From the IMG/VR virus record IMGVR_UViG_2541047715_000004: a DNA stretch of 64,000 nucleotides; one strand, 5' to 3'. Source of the DNA: a virus (taxonomy: Duplodnaviria; Heunggongvirae; Uroviricota; Caudoviricetes). Shown piece after piece: positions 5,579 through 40,699 of the stretch. The first letter of the stretch is position 1; every line of letters starts with the position of its first letter. Position numbers and translations under genes: made by a program. Under the pieces are notes generated by a model that did no database searches, was not told the origin of the DNA, and was given only the letters and a program-made list of their open reading frames with translations.

Positions 5579-5625
5579 ATGCAAACTGACTGCGGCACGT
5601 TCCGCAGTCATATTTCATAGTCGTC

Positions 5626-7252: not shown

Positions 7253-7272
7253 GTGGACACCTTTGTCATTCA

Positions 7273-7374: not shown

Positions 7375-7409
7375 ATGAACATGACTTCAGACCAGTCGTG
7401 GCGCGGCTT

Positions 7410-7495
7410 ACAGCGATCGGGGATCTTATTTGATCTATATAAGGATCTATCTATGGATCTCTTTATTAGGATCTATCCTGTGGATATGTGAATAA
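7410..7495. promoter_or_regulatory. putative plasmid origin core: GATC cluster plus DnaA box
   Basis: Six GATC sites within 7415-7473; TGTGGATAT (reverse complement ATATCCACA, one mismatch to TTATCCACA) at 7480-7488; AT-rich. Confidence 0.55.
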
Positions 7496-7573
7496 TTAAA
7501 ACAGGCATTTACTACCTTCGGCGCACCTGGTGGGTTATCGTTGCCTCGGCTAACAATCACAGAAAAATGACAT

Positions 7574-8218: not shown

Positions 8219-8472
8219 CCCTCCAGATCGTATATTGGCGTAGATAGAATCTACGCCCCCTCAAAATAGCTCTCATAGCGTTCTACAGTGATCCTGTCTT
8301 ATTTTTAGTCATACAGACAAGCAAAGTTGCGCCACGATAAATAGGTATATACTTACTTATAAATTTTGTATATTAAGGCGCTCGTTTCATTCCTAATATA
8401 CCGTTATGCATAGTTGTTTACCTCCTCATTGCTCTTAGAATTTGTATCAAAATAACCACAAAGGAAAAATAC

Positions 8473-9558
8473 ATGACTTTGCCATACGGCGTCATTTCTG
8501 ACTGCCACTACCACAAATGGGATGCGTTCTCCACGACGAACGCTGAGGGGCTTAACTCCAGACTTGAAATACAGTTGGAAGCAACGAAAGAAGCAGCCAT
8601 CGCCATGAAGAAGGCCGGTTGTAAGTACATGTTGGTTGCCGGTGATACATTTCACGTCCGAGGAACTGTGTCCCCTTCTGTTTTGCATTACGTAACTGAA
8701 ACGTACAAGTGGATTATCAACGAGCTTGATCTGACAGTAGTAATGCTGGCCGGTAATCACGATCTTGAAACCAACGATTCAGTATATAGCGCCAACGCAG
8801 CAGCATCGCTGAGTTCTATCGGCGTGGTAATCGTATGTGGCAAGCGCCCACACTCAATAAAAATTGGTGATGTGACTGTCCACCTGATTAGCTGGCGTAA
8901 CAATCATGCGGAGCTTATCAGCGATCTGAAAGCATTACGTAAGAGCGTAGAAGGTGATAATCATGACGTTGTTATCCATACATCCATTAACAAAGCCATT
9001 CCAACAATGCCTGACGTCGGTATCGATGCGCAGGAGTTAAAGGATATCGGCTTTCGTCTCGTGCTTAGTGGGCATTACCACAACCACAAAGAGGTCATTC
9101 CTGGAGTTATCAGTGTCGGTGCACTGACTCATCAAAATTGGGGAGATGTTGGATCTCTGGCTGGCTACATGATCGTAAACCCGGACGGCAGTTTCAGTCA
9201 CTACGAAACCAGTGCGCCTAAATTCATTAACCTGGAAGATGATGTTGCTGATGACCAAATTCGCGGCAACTACGTGCGTTTCCGCGCCGTAATTGAGAAC
9301 GATGAAGAAGGCATTAAGTACCAGAACATCCTCAAAACAATGGGTGCAAAAGGTGTCGTGTGCAACTTCATCCGTAAGTCATCAATGATGGAAGGGACAG
9401 CCAGCACAACTGAAACCAGCAAAATCGATAGCCTGGGAGAGTCGGTATCTGCTTATTGCAAGATTGTCCACGATACTGACGGCGGATTTGATCTGAGCAA
9501 ATTGGATATTTTGTGTCAGGAAATCCTCACCGAAGCGGAGAGTTCGGAGGCTGTGTGA
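8473..9558 (+). CDS. SbcD/Mre11-like calcineurin-fold nuclease
   Basis: Phosphoesterase motifs VAGDTFHV, LAGNHDLE, SGHYH; followed by Rad50-like ATPase. Confidence 0.7.
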   Translation: MTLPYGVISDCHYHKWDAFSTTNAEGLNSRLEIQLEATKEAAIAMKKAGCKYMLVAGDTFHVRGTVSPSVLHYVTETYKWIINELDLTVVMLAGNHDLETNDSVYSANAAASLSSIGVVIVCGKRPHSIKIGDVTVHLISWRNNHAELISDLKALRKSVEGDNHDVVIHTSINKAIPTMPDVGIDAQELKDIGFRLVLSGHYHNHKEVIPGVISVGALTHQNWGDVGSLAGYMIVNPDGSFSHYETSAPKFINLEDDVADDQIRGNYVRFRAVIENDEEGIKYQNILKTMGAKGVVCNFIRKSSMMEGTASTTETSKIDSLGESVSAYCKIVHDTDGGFDLSKLDILCQEILTEAESSEAV

Positions 9559-9791
9559 AGCAAAGTCGTTATGGGAGCTTTCGAGACTTTGCCATCACGA
9601 TGAAAAGACTTGAACGAGGCCAGACGGTGATGTTTCACAAGCCCTACCCGCCACAAGGAAATCCCGTAGCGTTTTATCTTGGAAGGTTAACAAGAAAAGG
9701 CGTATTGAGGCGCAGATCCTTCCCGGCGCATACGGAGTTCAGATTGAAAGAAGGCCAAAAGCTAACACACGGTATCAGAGGTGTTATATGA
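9513..9791 (+). CDS. small basic ORF bridging nuclease and ATPase genes (uncertain)
   Basis: 92-aa ORF overlapping both neighbours. Confidence 0.2.
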   Translation: MSGNPHRSGEFGGCVKQSRYGSFRDFAITMKRLERGQTVMFHKPYPPQGNPVAFYLGRLTRKGVLRRRSFPAHTEFRLKEGQKLTHGIRGVI

Positions 9792-11704
9792 AGTTTTTAA
9801 AGCTCCAGGTTGAGAATTTTATGGCTATCGCCAGCGCGGAGGTCGAGTTAGATCAGCGTGGTTTAGTGCTTATTCAGGGTGTTAATAGTGATGATAGTTC
9901 CGCATCAAGTAATGGCTCAGGAAAGTCAACTCTAATGAATAGCCTGATGTGGTGTCTTTATGGCGAAACAGCTCATGGTGTGAAGGGTGACGATGTGTTG
10001 TCTACCGACCATGAAAAGAACTGTCGTGTTGCAGTAACCATCGAGGATGAAGGCAAGAGATACGCAATCATTCGTCACCGTAAACACAAAGAGTTCAAAA
10101 ATCGTCTTATCGTTCGTGGTGAAGATGGCGATATGACGAAAGGCAAAGATGCGCTGACGCAGGAGTTCGTCGAGCGTCTGATCGGTGCATCTAAAGAGGT
10201 TTTCATGGCTTCCATCTATGCGAGCCAAGAAGCTATGCCAGATTTACCTGGAATGTCCGACAAAAACCTCAAAACCATCGTAGAAGAAGCCGCTGGCGTT
10301 GACAGACTGACACGCGCCTACGCTATTGCTCGTGAGCGAGCTAATGCAGCTGCCGCACGTATGGATGTGGTTAAAACCAAATTGGAGTCGACAATCTCGA
10401 CCATTGAGGCAACACAGTCAGAAATTGAGTCAGCGAAAGCCTCCTCTGAATCATGGGAGCAAGAGCGTTCTAAACGTTATGACGATGCCCTGGCTGGGCT
10501 GGCCAGTGCCGAAGTTGAGTTAACGGAAGTTGAACTTGAGATCCGCACTCTTCCCGAACAGATACGTGATACCGAGAAGGCAATCGAAAGTGAGCGCAAA
10601 AAGTTAGCCTCAAAAGAAGAACATGACGCCAAGTTGCTCAAAGTTCGTGGTGCGATAACTGATATTCGGGCAAGCATCAAAGCTACAGAAAATAGTCAGG
10701 CTGATGCAATGAGCCGCGCGCGCAATTTTAAGACCAAAGCAGAAGAGGTTGGTACTAAAGTAGGATCACCATGCCCTACTTGTGGCAAAGCCTACTGCGA
10801 AGAAGATCTATCAACGGTGAAGGAGAATTTCATTGAACAAGCACGTCAGGAAATTGGTCAGGCGAAGACACTTGCAGAGGCAATGGCTAAACACAAAACG
10901 AATCTTGAGAAAGCGTTAAGCATTGAGTCTGCCCTTGTTAAAACGACACCTGATGTAACGGCTATCATTGCCCGGATTGAAGAGCTTACGAAACAACTCT
11001 CATCTTTGCGTCATCGTGAGAAGGAGGTTGTTGCTATTGAGTCTCTTGTGACTCGTGCTCGTACTGAGGTCGATCGTATATCAAAAGAGATTAATCCGTT
11101 TATTGCTCTTATCGCCAGACACGAAGATAACTTGGTATCCAGTAAGTCTACCTTCAAGTCCTTAAAAGATGAGTTGAAGGCTATTCAGGAACAAACGTTG
11201 CTATTGGAAAAAGCTCGTCAGGTCTACTCTCCTGCCGGGGTGCGTTCTCATATTTTGACGTCTGTTACGCCTTTCCTGAATACACGCACTGCCGAGTATC
11301 TCAATACGTTGTCTGACGGGAATATTACTGCTGAGTGGTCGACGATGGATGTCACTAAAAAAGGTGAGTATCGCGACAAATTCAACATTAGTGTGCAGAA
11401 GAAAGGTTCAAGTAAGTCGTTCCAGACCCTCTCTGGTGGTGAGAAGCGGAAGGTTCGCATTGCGTGTTCTTTGGCATTGCAGGATCTGGTTAGTAACCGG
11501 GCGAGTAAAAACATCGATTTGTTTATCGGCGACGAAATTGACGATGCACTCGATACAGCCGGTCTTGAACGCCTCATGGGTATTCTGGAGTCCAAAGCTC
11601 GCGAGCGAGGTACTGTGCTGATTATCTCCCATAAAGAGATGAAGTCATGGTTCCGGGAAACTATTACGCTGGAAGTTAAAGAGGGGCGCAGCTATGTCGT
11701 TTAA
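9788..11704 (+). CDS. SbcC/Rad50-like SMC ATPase
   Basis: N-terminal Walker A GSGKST, central coiled coil with CPTCG zinc-hook-like motif, C-terminal LSGGEKRK signature and DEID Walker B. Confidence 0.8.
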   Translation: MKFLKLQVENFMAIASAEVELDQRGLVLIQGVNSDDSSASSNGSGKSTLMNSLMWCLYGETAHGVKGDDVLSTDHEKNCRVAVTIEDEGKRYAIIRHRKHKEFKNRLIVRGEDGDMTKGKDALTQEFVERLIGASKEVFMASIYASQEAMPDLPGMSDKNLKTIVEEAAGVDRLTRAYAIARERANAAAARMDVVKTKLESTISTIEATQSEIESAKASSESWEQERSKRYDDALAGLASAEVELTEVELEIRTLPEQIRDTEKAIESERKKLASKEEHDAKLLKVRGAITDIRASIKATENSQADAMSRARNFKTKAEEVGTKVGSPCPTCGKAYCEEDLSTVKENFIEQARQEIGQAKTLAEAMAKHKTNLEKALSIESALVKTTPDVTAIIARIEELTKQLSSLRHREKEVVAIESLVTRARTEVDRISKEINPFIALIARHEDNLVSSKSTFKSLKDELKAIQEQTLLLEKARQVYSPAGVRSHILTSVTPFLNTRTAEYLNTLSDGNITAEWSTMDVTKKGEYRDKFNISVQKKGSSKSFQTLSGGEKRKVRIACSLALQDLVSNRASKNIDLFIGDEIDDALDTAGLERLMGILESKARERGTVLIISHKEMKSWFRETITLEVKEGRSYVV

Positions 11705-16731: not shown

Positions 16732-17601
16732 ATGAACTTTACCAAACTGACTGACCACCTGAAACTTGCCACCGATCGACTCATTGGATTTAAGCCAGAA
16801 CCATATGAGTTGCATGAAGGCCATGGTGTAGCCACTGAAAGTATTTACAAGATGGTCGATCAGTTTCATGAACTCTTCCAGCATCCGAGACGCGTTATGC
16901 CGACACCAGAGCTGCTTCGTCTCCGTGCAAGCCTGATTCATGAAGAAGCTGTAGTGGAAGGTATTCCAGCCGCAATGAATGGGGATATTGAGCAACTGCT
17001 GGATGCAATGGCCGACTTTTTATACGTTGGTGTTGGTACGATGGTCGCCATCAAAGGTGGTATTTCTACCGGCATGACCTATTACACGCAGGAACAGAGC
17101 ATTGATCGCTTTATGCAGACAATTTTTGTGCCCGGTAACACTGTTTTCGATGATATGGCAATGCCATTTCAGGAAGCTCGTGAGGCGTCATGTATGCTCG
17201 AAGAGCTGGCAGATAAACTTGAGAACAAGACTGTTAAGGATTCTGAGCTGATTCAGGAACTGCGCCGTGTCATGAACAAAATCTATGTGGCGTGCATGAT
17301 GACCTATCGACTGGCTGATTTCCTCGGTATCAATGTAGTCGAGCTGGTTGGCGAAATTCATCGGTCTAACATGACAAAATTATGGCCTGCTGATGTAGAG
17401 GAACGTCGCCAGGCTGTGGCCAACTGCAAATACGACTCTTCAGACCTGGGATTTCGCCATGCTGATGGTACCGATAAGATGATCGGTTTTCGAATTTCCG
17501 ATGGAAAGATTCTGAAGTCTCCAACCTATAGTGATGTCGATTTATCCTCCTTTGTTGAGCAAGCTAAAGCCTCAGCAATGTACGGAATGATCAAAAAATA
17601 A
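16732..17601 (+). CDS. putative MazG-like all-alpha NTP pyrophosphohydrolase
   Basis: Two EExxE...D-like acidic helix motifs (LIHEEAVVEG...DIEQLLDAMAD; QEAREASCMLEELADKLE). Confidence 0.35.
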   Translation: MNFTKLTDHLKLATDRLIGFKPEPYELHEGHGVATESIYKMVDQFHELFQHPRRVMPTPELLRLRASLIHEEAVVEGIPAAMNGDIEQLLDAMADFLYVGVGTMVAIKGGISTGMTYYTQEQSIDRFMQTIFVPGNTVFDDMAMPFQEAREASCMLEELADKLENKTVKDSELIQELRRVMNKIYVACMMTYRLADFLGINVVELVGEIHRSNMTKLWPADVEERRQAVANCKYDSSDLGFRHADGTDKMIGFRISDGKILKSPTYSDVDLSSFVEQAKASAMYGMIKK

Positions 17602-17669
17602 TTGTAGGTAGTTATCTATCTGTGTATATTTAACATGCGTAATAAAACTCTGGAATGACTATTCGTTTT

Positions 17670-17696
17670 GGTGGCCTATGGCCACCATTTTTTTAT
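17670..17696 (+). terminator. rho-independent terminator
   Basis: Hairpin ggtggcc-tat-ggccacc followed by TTTTTTT. Confidence 0.65.
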
Positions 17697-17771
17697 CTGT
17701 CTGGTCTTGTTCTCTCAATGAATGTAAACTCACACGATGAATAAGTAATTACTTATATTTGTGAGGTTTTT

Positions 17772-18875
17772 GTGTCACTCCTTTTGAATCGAGAGCATAC
17801 GAACGGTCAGGTAACAAACGCATCGTATGCAAAAGTTATTGAGACGGTGCTTAAAAGCGGCGTGCAGGCTGATGATCGCACAGGCACTGGTACTTTAAGC
17901 ACCTGCTACGTTCCCTCTTACTACATGCTTACTGGTGGGACTGTGCCGCTTATTTCTGGAAAGGCGGTAAATCTTAAGCCACTACTTGTCGAACTTGAGT
18001 GGTATCTGAAAGGCACGGGCAACATCCAATTTCTCAAGGATAACGGCGTTAAGATTTGGGATGCATGGGCCGATGAGAATGGCGATTTGGGGCCGGTTTA
18101 CGGTAAGCAGTGGCGTCGATGGGAAGATACCCGCATCGTGAGCCATAGTGAATATCTGAGCAAGATCGCTACTTTCCGTGAACGCGGGTACAAAGTCGAG
18201 GGATACCTGGGTATCAGTGAAGATCGCGTAGTGCTGTCCCGTGAAATCGATCAGCTACAGCGTATTGTCGATACACTGCGCACGAACCCTACCGATCGTC
18301 GCATCATGCTTAACGCATGGAACGTAGGCGAGCTTGAGGATATGAAACTGCCACCTTGCCACTTTGTCTTCTCTTTGTGGAGTCGTGAGCTGGATTTTGA
18401 AACCCGTTTAACGATGGCAACTGACATTGGTCTTCAACACAGTCGCCTCGGTTACGAGTCTATCTACACCAAGATGCTATACGATCTGGAGATGGACGGC
18501 AGTGTTACTGAAGCTGAACTGGATGAACTTGGAATCCCCAAACGCATCCTCAACTCCTGCCTCGTACAGCGTAGCGTAGACACTTTTGTTGGTATGCCAT
18601 TCAATATTGCTGGCTATGGCATTCTCACTCATTTTCTCGCGAAGATTACGGGTCACATGGCCGGTGCATTTGTGCATTTTGGCTTTGACGTGCATTTGTA
18701 CAACAACCACATGGAAGGTGTGTGTGAGCTAATGAAACGACAGGCTCCAGAGCATTCAGATCCGGTCGTTATTTTCCCTCATGAATGGTCAGAGTTGGAT
18801 GATTTCAAATGGGACGAGGTTTTAATTCTTGGCTATGACCCTCTACCGTGGATCAAGGTTCCAGTGGCGGTGTGA
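17772..18875 (+). CDS. thyA: thymidylate synthase homolog (ThyA fold, long variant, GTG start)
   Basis: ThyA motifs DRTGTGT, LxELxWYLKG, IWDAWA, GPVYGKQWRRW, PPCHFVF, QRSVDTFVGMPFNIAGY; about 60 extra residues between the PPCH and QRS motifs. Confidence 0.75.
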   Translation: MSLLLNREHTNGQVTNASYAKVIETVLKSGVQADDRTGTGTLSTCYVPSYYMLTGGTVPLISGKAVNLKPLLVELEWYLKGTGNIQFLKDNGVKIWDAWADENGDLGPVYGKQWRRWEDTRIVSHSEYLSKIATFRERGYKVEGYLGISEDRVVLSREIDQLQRIVDTLRTNPTDRRIMLNAWNVGELEDMKLPPCHFVFSLWSRELDFETRLTMATDIGLQHSRLGYESIYTKMLYDLEMDGSVTEAELDELGIPKRILNSCLVQRSVDTFVGMPFNIAGYGILTHFLAKITGHMAGAFVHFGFDVHLYNNHMEGVCELMKRQAPEHSDPVVIFPHEWSELDDFKWDEVLILGYDPLPWIKVPVAV

Positions 18876-27976: not shown

Positions 27977-28079
27977 CAAATACCTTTATTTAAAGGATTG
28001 CCTGTTAATTTCTATTTAGCACCTTTTCATTTTTGAAATAATTGCACTATTAAACAAATCTTTTCTTAATGGTGCAATT

Positions 28080-28556
28080 ATGAATACAGCTCTTTCCATC
28101 ATCGACGATACCAACTCAAACACTGCTATCGATTATCGTCAGGAAATGAACGTCATCCACGAAATCGTAGCCGAGTGCGAGAAAGAGATCGCCTTCATGT
28201 ATCAGGTTCACGACTTCGTTTATGGCGACGAACGCCACAACATGATTAATCGCCTGCTGCAACTGAACCATCGACCAGATGAAGAACGCTCACGTTTGAA
28301 TCGAGCTTGGCTGGATAAAGTCGATCTGGAATGGGTGAAACAGAATATTTGGGCCGAGTACTGGAGGAAGGTCACGGATATGACTAACGTTTTGCTGATC
28401 ATGCCAGCTTCCCGTCGCGACGAGTGGCGTGAGCAGTTTATAGAGGGCAAACAGGAAGTCATCAAAACTGACAGAACCGGCTACCAGATGAAGGTTAAAG
28501 AGTTCGTTGGTGTACCTGAGTTCAAAGTGGATACAAACATCCCTACGATGGTTTGA
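28080..28556 (+). CDS. hypothetical protein
   Basis: 158-aa ORF preceded by inverted repeat TAATTGCAC...GTGCAATTA. Confidence 0.45.
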   Translation: MNTALSIIDDTNSNTAIDYRQEMNVIHEIVAECEKEIAFMYQVHDFVYGDERHNMINRLLQLNHRPDEERSRLNRAWLDKVDLEWVKQNIWAEYWRKVTDMTNVLLIMPASRRDEWREQFIEGKQEVIKTDRTGYQMKVKEFVGVPEFKVDTNIPTMV

Positions 28557-28614
28557 TCTGACAGCTATCTGCAATTTGCACAGATGTCTGCCAGATCTGG
28601 TTCAGATTAATACA

Positions 28615-31600
28615 CTATATCTGCCCACCTACTCCTTTGAACTTTTCAATAAACGTGACGATTTTCTGGAAAACGGTCTGTTTTTTCGTTTTATATTGCG
28701 GGTTTAACGGACTAAGTTTTGGTAATGTCTCGTTTAATTCTGTGCCATTTTCGGTGGCGTATTCGCGTTTTAAAGACGTGCGAATATAGCGTTTCGCCGC
28801 CTCTTCATTGAGATTTTCTTCTTTTATCAATGCTTCTGCTTCACGTTGCTGTTCGCGTTGAGCAAACGTAAAGAATGCCTCAATGATACTGGCTTTGTCT
28901 GGTAAATCATCCAGGTTCGTTTGCTGAATAAAATCGACCACCAGGCCCTCTTTCGCCCGGTTCCCCAGGCTTGAACGAATTAAGCGTTTGACCTCTTCGA
29001 TCATTTCGCCCTTGCCTTTATTTTGTCTGTTGTGTTCGAAAATCAGTCCAAGGATATAATCCAGGTTTATTTCCTGAGACTTCAGCAAATCGACCTCAAA
29101 AACTACGTCATCCCAGTCAGTGGTTGATTTCTCTTTTTTCTCAGCTTCTTTCTCACGGCGCTGCCAGTCGCGAATATCGTTATAGGCAGAACGATAATCC
29201 TGAATCTTGCGTTCAGCAGGGAGACGAATTGTTTGCAATTCAGCGAACTTTTCATCATCCACATAATGTTCTGCTTTGAATTTTTCTACCGCAACAGGAT
29301 CGCTAAGATCGATTTGTTGCAGGGCTTTCAGCGTGGCAAATTCATCATAGTTTTGCAGGATGTTCTCGGCACGCAGGTATTCACCAAACAGTTTTACGAA
29401 GTCTTTCTTCTCTTTTTCACTTTCAATACTGGCAGGGTCAGGGAACCGTTGTTCCAGTTCTGAAACTACTGCCATAAAGCCGCGTTTAGCTTCACCAGTG
29501 GCAGCATCTGTAAAGCCTTCCATATACTCAGCATAACTCTTTTCTAACACCACATTTTTAGTATTTTTATCACCAAACAGCGTTATGGCATCAATGGTTG
29601 AGCGTTCCAGATCCCGAAAAGTGACGATGTTACCGAAGGTTTTAGTAGCGTCATAAATGCGGTTGGTACGGGAGAATGCCTGCATCAGGCCGTGAAAACG
29701 CAAGTTTTTATCGACGAATAGCGTGTTCAATGTTGGAGCGTCGAAGCCGGTTAAAAACATCCCAACGACAATTAACAGATCGATATCCTGATTTTTAACC
29801 CGTTGGGCTAAATCACGATAGTAGTTCTGAAAACCGTTACTGTCGGTGCTGAAGTTAGTTTTAAAATAGCTGTTATACTCACGAATTGCAGCGTCAAGAA
29901 ACTCTTTAGCACTGCTGTCCATTGCGCTGGTATCAAAAGTTTCATCGGAAATTTCACCAATGGCATTTTGTTCTTCATTGGCGGCAAAGGAGAAGATTGT
30001 TGCAACACGCAGCGGTTTATAGGTAGCCGATTTATTAGCTGCTTCCTCTTGTAACCGTTTAAACGTCGCGTAATAGGCTTTCGCGGCATCCACGCTACTC
30101 ACTGCCAGCATGGCATTAAAGCCTTTGGAACCTGGGAAAGTACGGTGGGTCTTCTGGCGGAAGTTATTCAGAATATATTGCGTAATTTCCTGTATACGCA
30201 TGGGATGAAGAAATGCCTGCTGATTTTCAGCCGCACTCAGTTTTTTCTCGTCGGTTTCTGTCTCTAAAGATTTAAACTGTGGCCGCACATCGTTGTAGTC
30301 CACCTTGAATTTGAGCACTTTTTCATCACGAATCGCATCGGTAATTACATACGAATGCAATTCACGACCAAATACGCTGGCGGTCGTTTCTGAGCCTAAG
30401 GCGTTTTCCGGGAAAATAGGTGTGCCGGTAAAACCAAACTGATAATAGCGTTTGAATTTCTTCTTCAGGTTTTTCTGCGCTTCTCCAAACTGGCTGCGGT
30501 GACATTCATCAAATATAAACACCACTTGCTGATTGTATACAGGCAGGTCGCTTTCTGCTTTCATCAGGTTATTAAGTTTCTGAATAGTGGTGACGATAAT
30601 TTTGTTATCGTCCTTATCCAGATTGCGTTTAAGACCTGCGGTATTTTCCGAGCCGTTGACGCTGTCTGGCGAAAAACGCTTATATTCATTCATGGTCTGG
30701 TAATCGAGGTCTTTCCTGTCGACCACGAAGAAGACTTTATCAATAAAGTCCAGCTCTGTTGCCAGACGCGCGGCTTTAAAGCTGGTGAGGGTTTTACCTG
30801 AACCGGTAGTGTGCCAGATATACCCACCGCTTTCCGGTTTTGACCAGTTCTTCGCTGTAAAGGAACTCTTAATTTTCCACAGAATGCGCTCAGTGGCGGC
30901 AATCTGGTACGGTCGCATCACCAGTAGCGTTTGGCTAACATCGAATACGCTGTAGTTCACTAAGACATTAAGCAGGGTATGTTTCTGGAAAAAGGTGGCG
31001 GTAAAGTCTTTGAGGTCTTTAATCAGCGTGTTGTCTGATTTCGCCCAATTCATGGTGAAGTCAAAACTGTTTTTATCGCGCTTTGTCGTGTTGGCAAAGT
31101 AACGGGTATCGGTGCCGTTGGAAATGACAAACAGTTGCAGATACTTAAACAGAGAATTTTCGCTGTTAAAACTCTCTTTGCTGTAACGATGTATCTGGTT
31201 AAAGGCCTCACGAATCGCCACGCCGCGCTTTTTCAGTTCGATTTGTACCAGCGGTAAGCCATTAACCAGGATCGTGACGTCATAACGGTTAGCATGAGAA
31301 CCCGTCTGTTCAAACTGCTGGATAATCTGCACCTTGTTGCGCATGAGATTCTTTTTATCTATCAAATAGATGTTCTCAAGACGCTCGTCATCAAAAATAA
31401 AGTCGCAAATATAGTCGATATGGATTTTACGGGTCTTATCCAGGATGCCATCGCTCGGGTTATCCAGATACTGCTCCGTGAAACGCCGCCATTCGCTGTC
31501 ATTAAACACCACACCATTGAGGTTCTGAAGCTGTTCCCGAACGTTGGCCAGCATCGCCGACTGAGATTTTACGGAAATAAATTCATAGCCCTGATTCCGC

Positions 31601-31731
31601 AGATCCTGAATCAGTTCACGTTCCAGGTCCGATTCGCTCTGGTAGCTGTCGCCTGTTTGCTCGGCTTTGATGTACTTATCAAGAACGATAAAGTTATTGG
31701 ATTCAGCAATGGTGTGTGTCTGATGAGTCAT
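28615..31731 (-). CDS. hsdR: type I restriction enzyme R subunit (type IC, EcoR124-like)
   Basis: 1038 aa; N-terminus [22 protein letters not shown] matches my recollection of EcoR124I HsdR; helicase motifs [16 protein letters not shown]. Confidence 0.9.
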
Positions 31732-31852
31732 AGCGCATCCTTTGTGCCGTCTGGCAAGGGCCGGAAGGGCTTTAAGGGCGACTTCCGGCGTGTAAAAAAT
31801 AGTCTCTATATAGACCGGATGTTAAGGTGATCCGGTCGGTAGCAATGGTCAA

Positions 31853-33100
31853 TTAGTTACTGATAGTTTCAGGTTTGGGAAAACTGAACAGTAAATCACG
31901 ATAGTACTCGTATTGTTTCTGGCGCAACTCGATTTCACGCGGAAGACCTTCGGTGATGGAATTGGTCAAAGCATCAAATTTATCCAGTAATTTCACTATT
32001 TTTTGTTGTTCAACTAGCGATCTTTCAGGAGAATCAGGAAATGGTACTGGTATCATAAGTTTTCTTAAGTTATCATTATAAAGTCTTTTAATAGTTCCAC
32101 CTTCAGATATTCCCCATTTTGCTATTTTATAGAAATAGAATAAATATTTATTTAAAACTATTTTTTCATTATTTTCAATCCAGACAATATTGCTATCCTG
32201 GAAATATGATTCCCTACCATCAAATATAACAGTCCTGCCGATGGTCCCACTGGCAGAAATCAATACTTCGCCAACTTTAGGATAACTATATTTTTCTTTA
32301 AATTCATTAAATAGTTTTCTAGATATATAGGAATCGGGTTCCTTACCAAATGTCCCAATTTTATAAAATGGAATCTCTCCCTCAGAAGATGTTTGTGATT
32401 TTAGGATTCGTTTACACATACGAACTTCACCAATTTCCCCCAAAGCTTTCCACTCAACCTCACCCTCTTTAAAACTCAACAACTGGTCGCGATAGTAGTT
32501 GTATTGTTTTTTACGCATGCTAAGCTCAGCGGTAAGCTCAGCGGTAAGTGCAGTAAATTTATCCAGAATCCTGACGATTTCAGACTGGATAGCCAGCGAC
32601 TTTTCCGGGTTGTTGGGGCAAGGGATGGGGATAAGTAATTTACCTATATCTTTAGCATACAAATGATAAACAGTAGAACCTTTAACCATTTGCAATATCT
32701 TTTTTTTGTTATTTATTATGAAATTACTTAGATATCTACCATCAACACCAGAGCATCTAATAATCAAAATATCGCCGCCTAAAATAACGCCACTTTCTTG
32801 AATGCAACTAGCTGTAGCCAAACCTCTTGGTGTAACGTCTGACGTTGGCATTAGAACATCATTTTTTTCAGATAGAATTGACTCATTGATTGCTTGGTTT
32901 GTTTTTGAGCATACTTTGTCAATTATGGGACCATAATGAGTGAAAAGCTCACCGTAATGAATACAATATCTATTGCCATCTGGAGTTATTTTTTCTTTAG
33001 GTAAAGACTTCCCTTTTAAAAAAGTTGCTAATTTATTTAATGCTACCCACTCAACCTCAGCCCCATCCAGCAGTTTTTCCAGATAACTCAGCTCGCTCAT
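31853..33100 (-). CDS. hsdS: type I restriction-modification specificity subunit (type IC)
   Basis: Two target-recognition domains separated by conserved central region containing TAELTAEL; conserved C-terminal [22 protein letters not shown]. Confidence 0.9.
32522..32545 (-). repeat. 2 x 12-bp tandem repeat encoding TAEL-TAEL in hsdS central conserved region
   Basis: aagctcagcggt repeated twice on + strand (ACCGCTGAGCTT on coding strand). Confidence 0.85.
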
Positions 33101-34659
33101 GCCTGTACCTCGCTACCTTCAATCTCAGCAACAATCGCATCAATATCTTTACGCAACTGGTCGATTTTGCTGACCGTGGTTTTCAGCTCAGCATTCAGCT
33201 CAGCGATATCGATAATTTCGCGAGTATCTTTCGCTTCCACATAGCTGCTCACCGACAGGTTATAGTCATTCGCGACAACAGTCTCAAACGCAACAGATTT
33301 CGCCAGATGAGCAACATCTTCCTTGCTGGCAAATACCTGCATAATCTGTTCGATATGAGCATCGGTCAGAATGTTGTTGTTAGTCTCTTTTTTGAACAGT
33401 TCGCTGGCATCAATAAACTGAACTTTGGTATCCGTTTTATGTTTAGACAGCACCAGAATATTGACGGCAATAGTGGTGCCAAAGAACAGATTCGGTGCCA
33501 GTGAAATCACGGTTTCGACATAGTTATTGTCGACCAGATACTGACGGATTTTCTGCTCCGCGCCGCCACGGTAAAAAATGCCTGGGAAGCAGACAATCGC
33601 AGCGCGACCTTTGGCCGAAAGATAGTTCAGCGCATGTAATACAAACGCAAAGTCAGCTTTGGATTTGGGGGCCAGAACGCCAGCCGGGGCAAAACGTTCA
33701 TCGTTAATCAGCGTCGGGTCATCGCTGCCAATCCATTTCACCGAATACGGCGGGTTAGAAACGATGGCATCAAACGGTTTTTCATCTCTGAAGTGCGGCT
33801 CAGTCAGTGTATTACCCAGCTTGATATCAAACTTGTCGTAGTTGATGTTGTGCAAAAACATGTTCATACGCGCCAGGTTATAGGTCGTATGGTTGATTTC
33901 CTGACCAAAAAAACCTTCTTCGATGATATGGTCATCAAACTGTTTTTTCGCCTGCAACAACAGCGAACCGGAGCCTGCTGCCGGGTCGTAGATTTTGTTA
34001 ACGTGGGTCTGCCCGTGCATAGCCAGTTGTGCAATCAGCTTAGAGACGTGCTGCGGTGTAAAGAACTCGCCGCCGGACTTACCGGCATTCGCCGCATAGT
34101 TAGAAATCAGGAACTCATAGGCGTCACCGAACAGGTCAATCTGATGTTCATGGAAGTCACCAAGTTTTAGCCCTTCAACCCCTTTCAGAACCGCAGCCAA
34201 GCGGGCATTTTTATCTTTAACGGTGTTACCCAGGCGGTTACTGGTGGTATCGAAATCAGCAAACAAACCTTTGATGTCAGCTTCTGAAGGATAACCGTAA
34301 GCAGAACTTTCGATAGCAACGAAGATGCTGTTTAAATCTGCATTCAGTCTGTCATTAGTATTTGCTTTCGCAGCTACGTTGCAGAAAAGCTGACTGGGGT
34401 AGATGAAGTAGCCTTTAGTTTTGATGGCATCGTCTTTAATGTCATCAGTAATTACGCTGTCATCCAGTTTCGCATAACAGATACTGTCATCACCGGCTTC
34501 AATATAACTGGAAAAATTTTCGCTGATAAAACGGTAAAAAAGCGCGCCCAAAACGTACTGCTTAAAATCCCATCCATCGACTGAACCCCTGACATCGTTA
34601 GCAATTTGCCAGATCTGGCGATGAAGCTCTGCACGTTGTTGAATACTTGTCATTTTCAT
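33097..34659 (-). CDS. hsdM: type I restriction-modification methyltransferase subunit
   Basis: N6-adenine MTase motifs including NPPYS; stop overlaps hsdS start (ATGA). Confidence 0.9.
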
Positions 34660-34744
34660 CCACTTATTTCAGGTTTAAGTAATTGGATGTGATTCTACAG
34701 CAACTTGGATGCTTTAGCAGTTCGGACATTAGGTAACGAATGAC

Positions 34745-35009
34745 CTAATTAGAGCTTTTTGGAAAAGCGGTATTGTCGGTGCGATTTTAGCTATGTCTGG
34801 GTGTGCGATGGTGCAATACAATGACGGTGAAAAGGTTAGCATCCAGTTCGATGGCTGGTATTGGCTTGGATAGCCTGCCAAAAAACGCAGATAAAGCCTG
34901 TCAGCAATACGGAAAGTCTAAAGCTGTATATCTGCATAGCGCGAACGCTAACCCTCATCTTGCGCCTGGTACGGGTGTTCAGAATACCATCTGGAAATGT
35001 GAGCCTTAA
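34745..35009 (+). pseudogene. possible frameshifted small lipoprotein gene remnant
   Basis: Lipobox-like LAMSGC in one frame (ending at about 34866) continues in another frame as ORF 34803-35009; weak. Confidence 0.2.
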
Positions 35010-35011
35010 AC

Positions 35012-35263
35012 ATGAGCAACTGGAACATAGCAGCCAAAAGCCAGGAAGAAAGGAATAAAGTTAACGTTGACCTGGCTGCCAGGGGGGTTGCCTACAAAGA
35101 GCGATTGAACATACCCGTCATAGCGGAACAGGTAGCCCGTGAGCAACCTGAGAACCTGCGCACCTATTTCATGGAACGGCTACGGCACTACCGGCAGTTA
35201 AGCCTCCTGCTGCCAAAAGGAAACGATCCGGTATATCAGAAAGAAGATATAGCCAAAAAATAA
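35012..35263 (+). CDS. hypothetical protein
   Basis: 83-aa ORF upstream of the LexA box. Confidence 0.35.
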
Positions 35264-35323
35264 CGCGCCACCAGACGAGCGCAAAGCATCGCGCTATTGC
35301 ACACTTCAAGCATCTTTAATGTA

Positions 35324-35343
35324 TACTGTATGGATAAACAGTA
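35324..35343 (+). promoter_or_regulatory. LexA (SOS) box
   Basis: TACTGTATGGATAAACAGTA fits CTGT-N8-ACAG consensus, 19 bp upstream of the umuD-like start. Confidence 0.8.
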
Positions 35344-35361
35344 CTCTGAGGTGAAAACGCT

Positions 35362-35751
35362 ATGGGCTTCCCTTCTCCTGCGGCGGATTATGCTGAGAGC
35401 CGTATTTCTCTTGATCAGCAGATAATTAGACATCCTTCAGCGACCTACTTCATGAGGGCAGCTGATAGTCATCATCGTGAGGGAATATTACAGGGTGCAT
35501 TGCTGGTGGTCGATTCCTCACTTACCCCGGTTGATGGTTCTCTGCTTGTATGCGCTCTGGATGGGGAATATCGCGTAAAAAGATACCGGAAGTACCCACG
35601 TCAGCATCTGGAGGATTTAAGAACCGGTAAGAAGGAAGCATTGCCAAAGGATGACGATGGATGCACGGGCAGCAATGCCGTGTTTGGTGTGATCACTCAC
35701 ATTATCAACGACGCAAGAAGTGGCGAGTTTGATGATTGTCCCGTGATGTAG
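35362..35751 (+). CDS. UmuD'/HumD-like S24 peptidase-fold protein lacking the N-terminal arm
   Basis: Begins MGFPSPAADYAE, equivalent to E. coli UmuD residues right after the Cys24-Gly25 autocleavage site; no umuC partner follows. Confidence 0.65.
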   Translation: MGFPSPAADYAESRISLDQQIIRHPSATYFMRAADSHHREGILQGALLVVDSSLTPVDGSLLVCALDGEYRVKRYRKYPRQHLEDLRTGKKEALPKDDDGCTGSNAVFGVITHIINDARSGEFDDCPVM

Positions 35752-35762
35752 GAGAACTGATT

Positions 35763-35788
35763 AGGCGGTGCAATGCACCGCCTTTTAT
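35763..35788. terminator. bidirectional terminator hairpin
   Basis: Hairpin aggcggtgc-aat-gcaccgcct with T-run, between convergent umuD-like and mrp genes. Confidence 0.55.
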
Positions 35789-36888
35789 CACACTGCGCGG
35801 AATGCGATTTCGCCAGGTATTACTTCACCTTGCCAATACATTTGGGCGGCAACGCGATCTGCGAGGTCACGATAAATAGCCGTAAATTCGCTATCTGGAC
35901 GACTAATAACGGTTGGTGTTCCGTTATCCAGATCTTCACGAAGAGAGATATGAAGTGGCATTTGGCCTAACAACTGCGTGTTGTATTTCTCGGCCAGTTT
36001 CTGTGCGCCACCGGTGCCAAAAATTGGCTCGTGATGACCGCAGTTACTGCAAATATGCACACTCATGTTTTCGACGATACCCAGTACCGGCACTTCGACT
36101 TTTTCGAACATCACAATGCCTTTCTTCGCATCGATCAGCGCGATGTCTTGCGGCGTAGTTACCACAACCGCACCAGTTACAGGAATGTTCTGCGCCAGCG
36201 TCAACTGAATATCACCAGTGCCCGGCGGCATATCGAGAACGAGATAGTCCAGATCAGGCCATAGAGTTTCCTGCAACATCTGCATCAGCGCCTTGCTGGC
36301 CATCGGTCCACGCCACACCATTGCATTGTCGTCGGTGACCAGATAACCAATAGAGTTGGTTGCCAGGCCATGAGACATGATAGGTGCCATGTGAGTACCG
36401 TCAGGTGAGGTTGGACGTTGGTTTTCCGCGCCCAGCATGGTTGGAATTGATGGACCATAGATATCGGCATCCAAAATACCAACTTTCGCACCTTCAGCAG
36501 CCAACGCCAGTGCCAGGTTTACCGCCGTGGAGGATTTACCCACGCCGCCCTTGCCTGAGCTGACGGCGATAATGTTCTTAACGCCATTAATGCCTGGTTG
36601 GTTTTTGACGCGCTTAAGCGTGGCAATGTTGTACGACAGCTTCCAGTCAATAGCCTTTGCGCCAGTGATACGGAGCAGATCACCACTACATTGCTCTTTC
36701 AGGTCTTCAAAAGGCTTATTCCACACGAAAGGCATGATTAGTTCGACATGCAGTGTGTCATCCATCAACGCAACATGGTGTAACGCTTTAAGCGTAGTCA
36801 GGTTGTGTTTCAGGGTTGGGTGCTGAAAATTAGCCAGCGTACCGGCTACCATTGCTCTCAGGGCATCCGGCGATTTGGACTCGCTCAT
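35788..36888 (-). CDS. apbC: iron-sulfur cluster carrier ATPase Mrp/ApbC
   Basis: Deviant Walker A SGKGGVGKSS, CxxC motif ICSNCGHH; divergent from metG as in E. coli. Confidence 0.9.
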   Translation of the reverse strand: MSESKSPDALRAMVAGTLANFQHPTLKHNLTTLKALHHVALMDDTLHVELIMPFVWNKPFEDLKEQCSGDLLRITGAKAIDWKLSYNIATLKRVKNQPGINGVKNIIAVSSGKGGVGKSSTAVNLALALAAEGAKVGILDADIYGPSIPTMLGAENQRPTSPDGTHMAPIMSHGLATNSIGYLVTDDNAMVWRGPMASKALMQMLQETLWPDLDYLVLDMPPGTGDIQLTLAQNIPVTGAVVVTTPQDIALIDAKKGIVMFEKVEVPVLGIVENMSVHICSNCGHHEPIFGTGGAQKLAEKYNTQLLGQMPLHISLREDLDNGTPTVISRPDSEFTAIYRDLADRVAAQMYWQGEVIPGEIAFRAV

Positions 36889-37045
36889 CCCGTCTCCTTT
36901 ATTTTAATTTGCGCAATTGTCGCCTTGTAGTGTACTCCAGCTACGACATTTAATCATTTATGAGAAATGCTGTTATCACATGGCAGACATAAGGCCATTT
37001 TGTTACTATCAAGCCCCTTTTCACTACAAAGAAGTAATGCCTACT

Positions 37046-39079
37046 ATGACCCAAGTCGCGAAGAAAATTCTGGTGACGTGCGCGCTGCCGTACGCTAACG
37101 GCTCAATCCACCTCGGCCATATGCTGGAGCACATCCAGGCTGATGTCTGGGTTCGTTACCAGCGAATGCGCGGCCACGAGGTTAATTTCATCTGTGCCGA
37201 CGATGCCCACGGTACGCCGATCATGCTGAAAGCACAGCAGCTTGGTATCACACCGGAGCAGATGATTGGCGAAATGAGTCAGGAACACCAGACTGATTTC
37301 GCAGGCTTTAACATCAGCTATGACAACTATCACTCGACGCACAGCGAAGAGAACCGCCAGCTGTCTGAGCTTATCTATACTCGCCTGAAAGAGAACGGTT
37401 TTATTAAAAACCGCACTATCTCTCAGTTGTACGACCCGGAAAAAGGCATGTTCCTGCCGGATCGTTTTGTGAAAGGCACCTGCCCGAAATGTAAAGCGCC
37501 AGATCAATACGGCGATAACTGTGAAGTCTGCGGCGCAACATATAGCCCGACTGAATTGATCGAGCCGAAATCGGTGGTTTCTGGCGCTACCCCGGTAATG
37601 CGTGATTCCGAACACTTCTTCTTTGATCTGCCTTCTTTCAGCGAAATGTTGCAGGCATGGACCCGCAGCGGCGCGTTGCAGGAGCAGGTGGCGAACAAAA
37701 TGCAGGAATGGTTTGAATCCGGCCTGCAACAGTGGGATATCTCCCGAGATGCGCCTTACTTCGGTTTTGAAATTCCGAACGCGCCGGGCAAATATTTCTA
37801 CGTCTGGCTGGACGCGCCGATTGGCTACATGGGTTCCTTCAAGAATCTGTGCGACAAACGCGGCGACACTACCAGCTTCGACGAATACTGGAAGAAAGAC
37901 TCCACCGCCGAGCTGTACCACTTCATCGGTAAAGATATCGTTTACTTCCACAGCCTGTTCTGGCCTGCCATGCTGGAAGGCAGCAACTTCCGCAAGCCGA
38001 CCAACCTGTTTGTTCACGGCTATGTGACGGTGAACGGCGCGAAGATGTCCAAGTCTCGCGGCACCTTTATTAAAGCCAGCACCTGGCTGAATCATTTTGA
38101 CGCCGACAGCCTGCGTTACTACTACACTGCGAAACTCTCTTCGCGCATTGATGATATCGATCTCAACCTGGAAGATTTTGTTCAGCGCGTGAATGCCGAT
38201 ATCGTGAACAAAGTGGTTAACCTGGCCTCCCGTAATGCAGGTTTTATCAACAAACGTTTTGACGGCGTGCTGGCAAGCGAACTGGCTGACCCGCAACTGT
38301 ACAAAACCTTCACTGATGCCGCTGAAGTGATTGGTGAAGCGTGGGAAAGCCGCGAATTTGGCAAAGCTATCCGTGAAATCATGTCACTGGCTGACCTGGC
38401 TAACCGCTATGTTGATGAACAGGCTCCGTGGGTGGTGGCGAAGCAGGAAGGCCGCGATGCCGACCTGCAGGCGATTTGCTCTATGGGCATTAACCTGTTC
38501 CGCGTGCTGATGACGTACCTGAAACCGGTACTGCCGAAACTGACTGAACGTGCAGAAGCATTCCTGAATACAGAACTGACCTGGGATGGTATCCAGCAAC
38601 CGCTGCTGGGCCATAAAGTGAATCCGTTCAAGGCACTGTATAACCGTATCGATATGAAACAGGTGGAAGCACTGGTGGAAGCATCCAAAGAAGAAGTGAA
38701 AGCCACAGCTGCACAGGTAACTGGCCCACTGGCTGACGACCCGATTCAGGAAACCATCACCTTTGACGACTTCGCCAAAGTTGACCTGCGTGTGGCGCTG
38801 ATTGAAAACGCGGAGTTTGTCGAAGGTTCTGACAAACTGCTGCGTCTGACACTGGATCTCGGTGGTGAAAAGCGTAATGTCTTCTCAGGCATCCGTTCTG
38901 CTTATCCAGACCCACAGGCACTGATTGGTCGTCACACCATTATGGTGGCTAACCTGGCTCCGCGTAAAATGCGCTTCGGTATCTCCGAAGGCATGGTGAT
39001 GGCTGCTGGCCCCGGCGGGAAAGATATCTTCCTGTTAAGCCCGGATGCTGGTGCTAAACCAGGCCACCAGGTTAAGTAA
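37046..39079 (+). CDS. metG: methionyl-tRNA synthetase
   Basis: 677 aa, near-identical in pattern to E. coli MetG (HIGH motif [13 protein letters not shown], zinc knuckles CPKC...CEVC); true start ATG 37046 inside the longer listed ORF. Confidence 0.95.
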
Positions 39080-39240
39080 TTAAACAACCTCTGTTCGCAA
39101 TGCCCGGCAACACGCTGGGCATTTTCATATAGACACAACCCCTTCTGACTTTAACAAACCCTAAAACAATTTGTTTTCTACCTTTTGTTGATTGAGATAA
39201 TAAGCCACATAAGAAAACAAATTGTTTCGGAGTTGTTGAA

Positions 39241-39540
39241 ATGTTGAACATTACCCAAGCCTACCAGGTGGCATTGATCAGTTCATCTCATACATCAGAG
39301 GAAGATGCTCGCCGATTCATGATCGCAAGCAATGAGCTGGATTGGGTTTCACAAATTGATGGCGGTTGTATTGTCCACGCCGGGTTACAGGATGATGTCT
39401 GGAAAGATGACTTGCGTCGATATGGTATATCCGAAGGCGCGATTGCTAACATTCAGAAAGTACTTGATGTAGGCTTTGACTCTGTACATTTTGATTGTGG
39501 TGCACCGGTCGTTGAAGGGCTAGAGTGCTGGCAATGGTAA
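39241..39540 (+). CDS. hypothetical protein
   Basis: 99-aa ORF preceded by two GAAAACAA(n)TTGTTT motifs. Confidence 0.45.
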   Translation: MLNITQAYQVALISSSHTSEEDARRFMIASNELDWVSQIDGGCIVHAGLQDDVWKDDLRRYGISEGAIANIQKVLDVGFDSVHFDCGAPVVEGLECWQW

Positions 39541-39576
39541 TCCGGCAATCGCTTCATACTAGATAACGGAGAATTT

Positions 39577-39762
39577 ATGCTTAAAGAAGACTCATATCTA
39601 CTAAAGGCGCTTGAAATGCGTGGCGTTGAACCTACAGTGAAAAACGCTCACGATATCTACCTTCAGTTTTCACCGGAGCTGAAACGGCTCATAAATCAAT
39701 ACGGGGTTAATGACTCAAGTGTTAAAGCAATGATAGATGATGAATTAGACCATCTCATCTAA
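39577..39762 (+). CDS. hypothetical protein
   Basis: 61-aa ORF with RBS. Confidence 0.35.
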   Translation: MLKEDSYLLKALEMRGVEPTVKNAHDIYLQFSPELKRLINQYGVNDSSVKAMIDDELDHLI

Positions 39763-39914
39763 TCGTTTCCTATGATAATGGTTTTCACTTTGAGATTGTT
39801 ATTTTTCATAGCTAAAGCTGATGTTTGTGGAAGGTGGATTGATAAACGGATGCGTATTTAGGTTATACAAGTGAGAAAATTGATAATATATAAACGCGAT
39901 TTTTATGTGATGGA

Positions 39915-40484
39915 ATGGATGTGATGGAAACCCAGAACCAACAAACAAAACCTCTGAATAACATTTATGCGTGGATTCTAGCGTTCATGCCTTTCTTCTT
40001 TGGAGTATCGCCGGAAGAGTATACCAATTACGCTATTATAATTGGGGGTGTAACTACCATCGGTTTGTTAGTAGCTGACAGAATGGCTCTATCGGAGTCT
40101 GGCTGTGAACCACCTTCAATTCTATGGGGGGTATTCCTCCTGCCTGTCTATCTCTGGAAGCGCGCGACTATTACAAAAGGCAGCAGAGTGCCATTTATCA
40201 TAATCGTTGCGTCGCTGGCTTGGATTATCTTCATCGGCATCCCACACAAGGACGAGGTTGCTCTTGAAGAAGCAGCCTGCCCTCTCGTGACAACTATTCT
40301 GAAAGAGAATAACGGTTCGACTGCACCAAAATGTATGAAGGTGACAATAGAGGACAAGGTGACGGATAAGTTCTATAGAGCAACGGCTACACTAGACAAT
40401 GGTAATGACATTAACATTACTCTGGAACTTACCGGCGACAGGAACTTCTACGTCCGTGTTCCAAATGTTTATCTGAACAACTAA
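39915..40484 (+). CDS. hypothetical membrane protein
   Basis: Several hydrophobic segments; exact start uncertain. Confidence 0.4.
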   Translation: MDVMETQNQQTKPLNNIYAWILAFMPFFFGVSPEEYTNYAIIIGGVTTIGLLVADRMALSESGCEPPSILWGVFLLPVYLWKRATITKGSRVPFIIIVASLAWIIFIGIPHKDEVALEEAACPLVTTILKENNGSTAPKCMKVTIEDKVTDKFYRATATLDNGNDINITLELTGDRNFYVRVPNVYLNN

Positions 40485-40699
40485 CGGTTGTAACTTATTG
40501 ATAATGGCGGTCACAATTTGATTCTTTTCTATAAGAATCCGTTGATCGCCACTACTCCCCTACCATGCCCGCAATCACATCCTTAAATATCAATAAGTTA
40601 TAGTTGTTTATACAATCAAGAAAACAACTGAATAACAGATCAACGAAACATCAACGCTTTCACCCGATTTGGTCTAAAAAATTGACGTTTTCACACATC

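Follow-up and report, generated by a model that had tools for sequence, protein, structure and literature searches.

Anatomy of an accessory zone with type IC hsd, hot, humD and apbC-metG genes in an Escherichia SSU5-like phage-plasmid

Introduction

The closest described relatives of the locus treated here are SSU5-like phage-plasmids. Among them, Cyrano (pLF82) has been shown experimentally to form siphovirus particles, is inducible by ciprofloxacin and is present at about 5.5 copies per cell (PMC9928086). In Shigella sonnei, Tam et al. (medRxiv 10.1101/2024.10.27.24316207) associated multidrug resistance with multiple, highly variable phage-plasmid-borne copies of metG, linked the metG of pWPMR2 to antimicrobial survival and described metG copy expression as creating a sub-population predisposed to acquiring resistance (all as summarised in PMC12452169). 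The presence of apbC on pSLy3-group elements was remarked on separately (PMC12429562), and a 2025 survey of SSU5-like phage-plasmids of E. coli and Shigella reported restriction–modification (R-M) systems in clade J and no defence systems in the pWPMR2 clade K. Here, positions 28557–39130 of a 64,000-nucleotide stretch of the tailed-virus record IMGVR_UViG_2541047715_000004 were analysed (the whole stretch is called the window below), in which a type IC R-M cassette, hot, humD and the divergent pair apbC-metG lie side by side (the block).

Type IC R-M systems constitute a family that is defined by cross-complementing and cross-hybridising subunits. In the GenBank record of phage P1, P1 DNA is already annotated as homologous to sequences flanking the EcoDXXI and R124/3 hsd loci. 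That type IC hsd goes together with P1-type sequence has thus long been noted, and the window is another instance. The components of the block are thus already described (pWPMR2 metG, apbC on pSLy3-group elements, R-M systems of the clade, the P1/type IC hsd linkage, P1 hot and humD), and the block itself is real, ordinary for its lineage and already known.

Identity of the element and module boundaries

The region very probably constitutes the variable part, holding accessory ("moron") genes, of a phage-plasmid of the Escherichia SSU5-like type (pLF82/Cyrano, pSLy3-group, rep_cluster_488), lying between DNA-metabolism and small early genes and assembled stepwise from four modules. Judged from their homologies, these are separately acquired: a type IC hsd cassette, a P1-like hot, a LexA-boxed humD and a captured apbC-metG pair, the last being the sole host-derived module and the others mobile-element DNA. 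The initial annotation had described a host-type block of about 10.5 kb embedded in phage-plasmid backbone; the backbone was found on both sides, while the notion of a single host-type block did not hold, hsd and hot/humD being of mobile-element or P1 type. All genes that had been named (hsdR, hsdS, hsdM, the umuD′-like humD, apbC and metG) were present and intact at the expected place according to the ORF map, Pfam and NCBIfam; hot, the LexA box and a methylase remnant at 28080–28556 had been missed.

The whole window was collinear with circular SSU5-like phage-plasmids of about 110 kb. Positions 1–25000 and 40000–64000 matched the same non-mobilizable circular plasmids of this size at 97–99.6% identity, and the flanks of the block were 96.7–97.7% identical to phage Cyrano, with homology to SSU5 as well. 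As initially noted, phage-type genes occupy both sides: the left 25 kb of the window contain RepB, nrdAB, thyA and recA (dfrA is also among the nucleotide-metabolism genes of the element, beside nrdAB and thyA), and the right 24 kb terminase, portal and Ig-like proteins. This collinear backbone, the replication initiator, and the siphovirus structural and DNA-metabolism genes place the element among the SSU5-like (pHCM2/pLF82, pSLy3-group) phage-plasmids.

Module limits were obtained by breakpoint mapping. Backbone homology to Cyrano ends at 28553 (SSU5: 28550), within a methylase gene, and resumes at 35314; in Cyrano and four other sister plasmids it resumes at 35309–35316, just upstream of the LexA box. 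The segment 35314–39540, containing humD, apbC, metG and a DUF5983 gene, is common to Cyrano and sister phage-plasmids. Homology to the E. coli chromosome is confined to 35792–39080, the stretch between the stop codons of apbC and metG. Of the limits first proposed for the block, 28557 therefore marks a true junction, since Cyrano homology stops at 28553, whereas 39130 marks no junction relative to the sisters, only the chromosome-derived DNA and a terminator ending there. At the left junction, the backbone DUF4942 DNA methyltransferase persists as an N-terminal remnant of 158 aa (28080–28556, plus strand; positions 1–150 of 548 of the phrog_6263 profile), cut at 28553/28554. The enzyme is 562 aa long in SSU5 and Cyrano, and full-length genes are present in other relatives. 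The remnant is followed by 61 bp of junction filler (28554–28614), reaching to the hsdR stop codon and matching none of Cyrano, SSU5, P1 and vB_EcoM-673R5. Neither insertion sequence (IS) ends nor target-site duplications nor repeats were found at the junctions, and the P1 sequence annotated as downstream of hsdR, sought at the left junction, gave no match there.

Where the window has hsd and hot, sister elements carry the full-length methylase followed by variable Ea22, Ead, DUF551 and HD-domain genes. Elements with humD-apbC-metG but neither hsd nor hot are Cyrano, pMTY18530-3, pAVS0747-B, pEA26_1 (E. albertii), p7.2.1 (ST131) and an S. sonnei plasmid. The comparison with related phage-plasmids lacking the block, which the initial annotation had proposed, thus had a divided outcome: the sisters lack hsd and hot and keep humD-apbC-metG, and SSU5 itself is devoid of hot, humD, apbC and metG.

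In PLSDB, humD-apbC-metG was found in about 190 plasmids at 95–99.4% identity (E. coli, Shigella and E. albertii; nearly all 105–115 kb in size and non-mobilizable), in addition to phage Cyrano. All 5426 of 5426 complete E. coli genomes hold a chromosomal apbC-metG copy at about 90% identity, and an extra copy was located at 226 plasmid places; the plasmid-borne genes are therefore always second copies, which answers a question raised in the initial annotation. The phage-plasmid type is present in about 4% of complete E. coli genomes. Carriage of metG and mrp (apbC) by a mobile element, initially regarded as unusual, is so in general terms, but it is the norm for this lineage and already published.

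Three other accounts of how these genes came to lie together were weighed against stepwise assembly. A misjoining of contigs near 28.56, 34.7 or 39.1 kb could be suspected from the composition steps in the block (GC 0.35 in hsdS and 0.50–0.52 in apbC-metG, compared with some 0.45 in the backbone). However, the 12 kb that span the block aligned without a break at 99.5% identity to the circular 111,310-bp plasmid pRHBSTW-00180_3 (CP056788.1), and further complete plasmids from humans, pigs, poultry and water matched at 98.9–99.3%; altogether, 28000–40000 with all three junctions is covered in one piece, at 98.9–99.5% identity, by no fewer than five complete circular plasmids of independent origin, which come from different countries and hosts, and 41 plasmid records cover at least 80% of the region. 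The junctions between apbC-metG and backbone moreover recur in the roughly 190 plasmids and in Cyrano, and an assembly chimera is thereby refuted. Likewise refuted for the window is a chromosomal apbC-metG locus between two unrelated prophages, or a phage-plasmid integrated at metG: the native divergent arrangement would fit, and 2 kb at 94% identity could in principle support homologous integration, yet the chromosomal neighbours yehE and the DUF4132 gene (yehI) are absent beside the pair, no homology extends past either stop codon, every E. coli chromosomal copy differs from this one by about 10%, and both flanks are parts of a single collinear circular element of about 110 kb, with RepB to the left and terminase and portal to the right. 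One recent en-bloc capture of a 10.5-kb host segment with hsd, umuD′, mrp and metG, finally, would account for the contiguity of these genes and for their joint position in a stretch without the backbone palindrome described below. It is nevertheless highly improbable, given that humD-apbC-metG stands without hsd and hot in the five named sisters, that the hsd cassette occurs alone in P1-like phages and more than 2000 plasmid records, that hot and humD are of P1 type, and that the divergence from the chromosome is large and unequal for apbC and metG.

The apbC-metG module

The gene apbC (mrp; 35788–36888, minus strand) encodes an Fe-S cluster carrier ATPase of 366 aa (NF008669, 759.3 bits versus a cutoff of 348), in which the deviant Walker A motif GKGGVGKS and the cluster-binding CxxC motif CSNC are intact; identity to K-12 was 82% at the nucleotide and 94.8% at the amino acid level. 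The gene metG (37046–39079, plus strand) encodes a methionine–tRNA ligase of 677 aa (NF001100, 1020.7 bits versus a cutoff of 587) with 93.6% nucleotide and 98.5% amino acid identity to K-12. It has the motifs HLGH at 22 and KMSKS at 333 and the zinc knuckles CPKC at 146 and CEVC at 159, all intact, and matches the Pfam families tRNA-synt_1g, Anticodon_3 and tRNA_bind, i.e. the class I, dimeric form with C-terminal tRNA-binding domain. The divergent control region between both genes (36889–37045) comprises 157 bp, compared to 131 bp in K-12; its gene-proximal parts are chromosome-like and its middle is diverged with insertions. The initial annotation had recognised the divergent arrangement of E. 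coli, and both the gene pair and its promoter-proximal sequence indeed match the chromosome. On both ends the module is bordered by terminator-like sequences specific to the phage-plasmids: a GC-rich hairpin with T-run that abuts the apbC stop codon (35764–35786, plus strand) and is absent from the chromosome, and a hairpin with T-run after metG (39100–39126, plus strand), where chromosome homology has already ended at 39080. Counts from a promoter and terminator scan were no better than those from shuffled sequence and were not used as evidence. No tRNA gene, such as a tRNA-Met partner for the methionyl-tRNA synthetase (MetRS), was found in the 64-kb window; the related pECOH89 was reported to carry tRNA-Thr and tRNA-Asn (PMC3999498), which could sit on a part of the element beyond the window.

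Both genes are under strong purifying selection, with pairwise dN/dS values of 0.00–0.03. Across seven phage-plasmid copies, apbC showed 62 polymorphic codons with synonymous changes only versus 2 with amino acid changes (two distinct proteins), and metG 199 versus 15; no internal stop was found in either gene and no frameshift in apbC. The identical ApbC protein WP_000004356.1 is encoded on plasmids of E. coli and of E. albertii.

The two genes differ in their apparent age. For apbC, dS to K-12 was about 1.5 and GC at third codon positions (GC3) was 0.53 on the phage-plasmids versus 0.62 on the chromosome; for metG, dS was 0.32 and GC3 0.62 versus 0.63. In the apbC tree, the phage-plasmid genes formed a tight monophyletic clade on a long branch, sister to the chromosomal genes of E. 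coli plus E. albertii; in the metG tree the phage-plasmid alleles were interleaved with K-12 inside the Escherichia clade. In metG, stretches without any difference from K-12 reached 344 nt for the S. sonnei plasmid (P ~3e-6 in a uniform model) and 237 nt for p7.2.1, positions at which the window metG is 93–95% identical; gene conversion is claimed for these relatives and not for the allele in the window. The closest chromosomes among the matches listed belonged to E. coli or E. albertii for metG and to Citrobacter or E. coli for apbC, with Salmonella, E. fergusonii and others not among these listed matches. A MetG match described as "E. albertii 99%", a value for the best segment, proved to be the ordinary chromosomal copy with 93% nucleotide identity.

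These patterns are read most simply as a single old capture out of the Escherichia stem lineage, after which metG went on being converted by the chromosomal copies of the host. Exchange with the chromosome that affects metG and hardly apbC would explain why metG looks young (94%) and apbC old (82%). The order of events, as we infer it, would begin with a single old capture of exactly the divergent pair, trimmed to the two stop codons and bracketed by terminators of the element; purifying selection would then have kept both genes functional, together with their own promoter region. As a separate observation, the apbC alleles of Cyrano and pAVS0747-B share an 80-nt run identical to K-12 (nt ~520–600, P ~3e-5), with a maximum of 29 nt in the other phage-plasmid alleles; occasional gene conversion therefore seems to reach apbC too.

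The type IC hsd cassette

The hsd cassette (28615–34758, minus strand) was delimited as a transferable unit by the extent of its homology to the P1-like Punavirus vB_EcoM-673R5; it reaches between the final base of the hsdR stop codon and a point some 100 bp upstream of hsdM. Identity amounted to 95–97% over 28615–31987 and 33047–34758, with divergence only in the target-recognition part of HsdS. In that phage the cassette adjoins phd-doc and occupies the place of P1's hot-lxr-humD; there it is annotated in fragments (5090–11041; HsdR1/HsdR2 and a split M protein) and appears pseudogenised or mis-sequenced, in contrast to the intact copy of the window.

The EcoR124-like hsdMSR operon that had been proposed was confirmed at the level of each subunit. 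The restriction and translocase subunit HsdR (28615–31731, minus strand; 1038 aa, intact) matched EcoR124I HsdR (2w00_A) with 2274.5 bits over residues 1–1038 and contains the Pfam domains HSDR_N, SWI2_SNF2, T1R_D3 and EcoR124_C; PADLOC assigned REase_I with 1611.9 bits. The methyltransferase subunit HsdM (33097–34659, minus strand; 520 aa, intact) matched EcoR124II M (7bst_D) with 1150.9 bits over residues 1–519 and TIGR00497 with 650.8 bits, as opposed to only 68 bits for the M protein of the type IA enzyme EcoKI. The specificity subunit HsdS (31853–33100, minus strand; 415 aa) aligned to EcoR124 HsdS in its conserved N-terminal, central and C-terminal regions and holds the repeat TAELTAEL at residues 186–193, while its two target-recognition domains (TRDs) failed to align with those of EcoR124; a different recognition sequence is therefore expected. 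Within hsdS, GC drops to 0.346 over the TRDs (window 32000–33000), and a 24-nt direct repeat is present (32442/33039, 597 nt apart), the spacing of which would suit a duplicated two-TRD architecture. The genes hsdM and hsdS overlap by 4 nt and a gap of 121 nt precedes hsdR, giving a complete hsdM-hsdS-hsdR set with intact frames.

By the homology of its subunits the cassette is a bona fide type IC system of the EcoR124 family. In this sub-lineage only, hot and an EcoR124-family cassette with new TRDs would have replaced the 3′ 70% of the DUF4942 methylase together with some Ea-like genes. Intact genes and family membership suggest that an HsdM2S methylase would protect resident DNA and that the HsdR complex would restrict unmodified incoming phages and plasmids, to the benefit of both lysogen and element. 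The capture of host DNA beside a defence cassette, one of the options initially raised, thus describes the locus well: apbC-metG is truly captured and the type IC hsd genes lie alongside.

In relatives, the slot that holds hsd here contains RSH/HD-domain (alarmone-type) genes as well as Ea22, Ead and DUF551 genes (SSU5 17203–17844; 3670–4311 and 3349–3990 in two others). With such varied cargo, the slot acts like a hotspot at which defence or counter-defence genes are carried.

The hot and humD genes

The gene hot (35012–35263, plus strand) encodes a P1-type homologue of the theta subunit of DNA polymerase III (PF06440, 107.9 bits versus a threshold of 34.6; NF008207, 97.6 bits, barely over the cutoff of 97). 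It is 89.9% identical to P1 hot at the nucleotide level and absent from Cyrano and four other sister phage-plasmids. By homology, Hot could substitute for theta, as in P1. The 262 bp between the hsd cassette and hot (34759–35020) had no match at the DNA level in the elements compared and hold a small phage-type ORF (34803–35009, plus strand; phrog_7757, E=2.4e-31) that lies between hsdM and hot and is without annotation in CP056788.1.

The gene humD (35362–35751, plus strand) encodes a pre-processed UmuD′-type protein, matching the HumD equivalog NF051876 with 219.8 bits versus a cutoff of 120 over residues 1–129 of 129. The protein starts with MGFPSPAADY, the exact N-terminus of cleaved UmuD′, and the gene is 85.6% identical to P1 humD. 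Upstream, a consensus LexA (SOS) box, TACTGTATGGATAAACAGTA, was read from the sequence (35324–35343), the position of which matches the annotated LexA site of P1 humD. An S24-family fold lacking the N-terminal cleaved segment and the upstream LexA box mark the product as a HumD. Homology to P1 at humD begins at 35313, where SSU5-like homology also resumes. In this lineage, in which the P1-type humD is conserved, SOS derepression of LexA would provide a ready-made UmuD′ partner for host UmuC, as the LexA box and the homology suggest.

The backbone palindrome and neighbouring genes

The initial annotation had noted two upstream motif families on both sides of the block, one of which was confirmed by a motif search of the window. 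For the 13-nt palindrome AAACAnnTTGTTT, 8 sites (15 strand matches) were counted in the window, compared to 0.12 expected; they are located at 4030, 25694, 26423, 39164, 39215, 42023, 42507 and 53061, to the left and to the right of the block but nowhere within it. Two copies (39164–39227) mark the return to early genes regulated by the phage-plasmid. The sites inspected near the block lie upstream of small early genes, often inside a longer common motif of about 30–50 nt. In appearance, AAACAnnTTGTTT resembles an operator to which a regulator encoded by the element would bind.

The segment in common with Cyrano closes with a small DUF5983-type ORF (39241–39540, plus strand; PF19419, 42.6 bits; phrog_5003). 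Just 3′ of the block, a second, smaller variable spot was observed (39541–40496) with ORFs at 39577–39762 (phrog_11467) and 39915–40484 (phrog_12486); at the matching position, Cyrano carries a coiled-coil moron (CYRAN_102) and other relatives IS26 or different genes. Unassigned ORFs flanking the block were submitted to PADLOC, in which nothing was found.

Discussion

The retained promoter-proximal sequence and the absence of the backbone palindrome from the block indicate that expression of apbC and metG should be autonomous, at plasmid dosage, in the lysogen. In strain LF82, CYRAN_99 (apbC) was transcribed 9-fold above prophage background and classed as a lysogen-expressed moron (PMC9928086). 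By analogy with the published work on the sister pWPMR2, as far as it is summarised in the citing paper, an extra metG would create an antimicrobial-surviving, i.e. tolerant, sub-population.

Several points weigh against the preferred reading as a whole. When LF82 was grown in LB, metG (CYRAN_100) did not belong to the set of genes exceeding background 5-fold or more (PMC9928086). The tolerance phenotype was shown for pWPMR2 of S. sonnei and not for the element in the window, and is taken from the citing paper. The longest run identical to K-12 in the window metG was 74 nt (P=0.62), so that no significant conversion tract was obtained against K-12, which may not be the host's chromosome. Age need not be the whole cause of the long apbC branch, to which accelerated or compositional drift could contribute. 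The best P1-type match of hot and humD, finally, is only 86–90% identical.

With respect to function, apbC and metG might instead serve as auxiliary metabolic genes of the lytic cycle, raising the charging of tRNA-Met and the supply of Fe-S clusters for the synthesis of phage proteins and DNA, without a part in lysogenic conversion or tolerance. The many nucleotide-metabolism genes of the element (nrdAB, thyA, dfrA) and the absence of metG from the lysogen-expressed morons scored in LF82 speak for this, and the strong purifying selection is compatible with any function; the host-type promoter-proximal sequence, the lack of the operator-like palindrome at both genes, the transcription of apbC in the LF82 lysogen and the lysogen phenotype reported for phage-plasmid metG, as summarised, argue in the opposite direction. 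An exclusively lytic role is rather unlikely; a role in the lytic cycle as such is a live alternative, and lytic and lysogenic roles are mutually compatible. Considerably less credible is the view of apbC as a non-functional hitch-hiker that is kept through the divergent promoter region common with a selected metG. Published attention has gone to metG only, and no Fe-S-dependent gene of the element was identified in this analysis, both of which would be in line with it. Against it stand the 62 to 2 ratio of synonymous-only to amino-acid-changing codons with only two proteins in seven copies, the occurrence of the same WP_000004356.1 in two species, the intact Walker A and CxxC motifs and the absence of frameshifts.

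Under the preferred reading of an old capture with continued metG conversion and expression in the lysogen, a further idea is put forward tentatively, as a possibility that we consider unlikely. The phage-plasmid might act as a shuttle for alleles of an essential gene: its metG would repeatedly recombine with chromosomal metG, thereby diversifying its own tolerance-conferring allele, and could move tracts between Escherichia and Shigella lineages, while apbC, its protein frozen since the stem-Escherichia capture, would have an independent selected role, for instance in Fe-S supply under inducing stress or in buffering the cost of excess MetRS. Neither role has been described so far.

The main value of this analysis lies in closing a lead: the block is neither an artefact nor a new kind of element. 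Such an accessory zone is standard in a common phage-plasmid of E. coli and Shigella, and a link of its metG to antimicrobial survival in epidemic Shigella is already described, according to the summarised work. What remains useful is the dissection into four modules with exact breakpoints and the finding that apbC, and not metG alone, is under near-absolute purifying selection on the element. The pairing of an "old" apbC with a metG kept "young" by conversion also bears on the origin of the reported variability of metG alleles.

Comparison with described systems

Compared to the E. coli chromosomal apbC-metG locus, the window retains the divergent pair, the MetG length of 677 aa, the promoter-proximal sequence and all catalytic motifs, and differs by about 6% nucleotide divergence in metG and about 18% in apbC, by a lower GC3 of apbC, by an ApbC that is 3 residues shorter at the N-terminus and by the lack of any chromosomal flank. 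The pWPMR2-type and pLF82 (Cyrano) phage-plasmids share the backbone family and the genome location, with humD-apbC-metG-DUF5983 being 97–98% identical in Cyrano and 97.3% in S. sonnei LR213459.1; relative to them, the window adds type IC hsd and hot where they have the full-length DUF4942 methylase and Ea-like genes. With EcoR124I/II, EcoDXXI and EcoprrI, the cassette has in common HsdR and HsdM that are near-identical to the EcoR124 subunits over the full length, the gene order hsdM-hsdS-hsdR, the TAELTAEL spacer repeat and a position next to P1-type sequence, here hot and humD; its TRDs differ, and its carrier is an SSU5-like siphovirus phage-plasmid and neither a conjugative plasmid nor a P1-like element. 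In relation to P1 hot-lxr-humD, finally, nucleotide identity is 90% for hot and 86% for humD, and the LexA box upstream of humD and the pre-cleaved UmuD′ form are found in both, but in the window lxr is missing, hot and humD are directly adjacent, and the downstream neighbour is apbC and not phd-doc.

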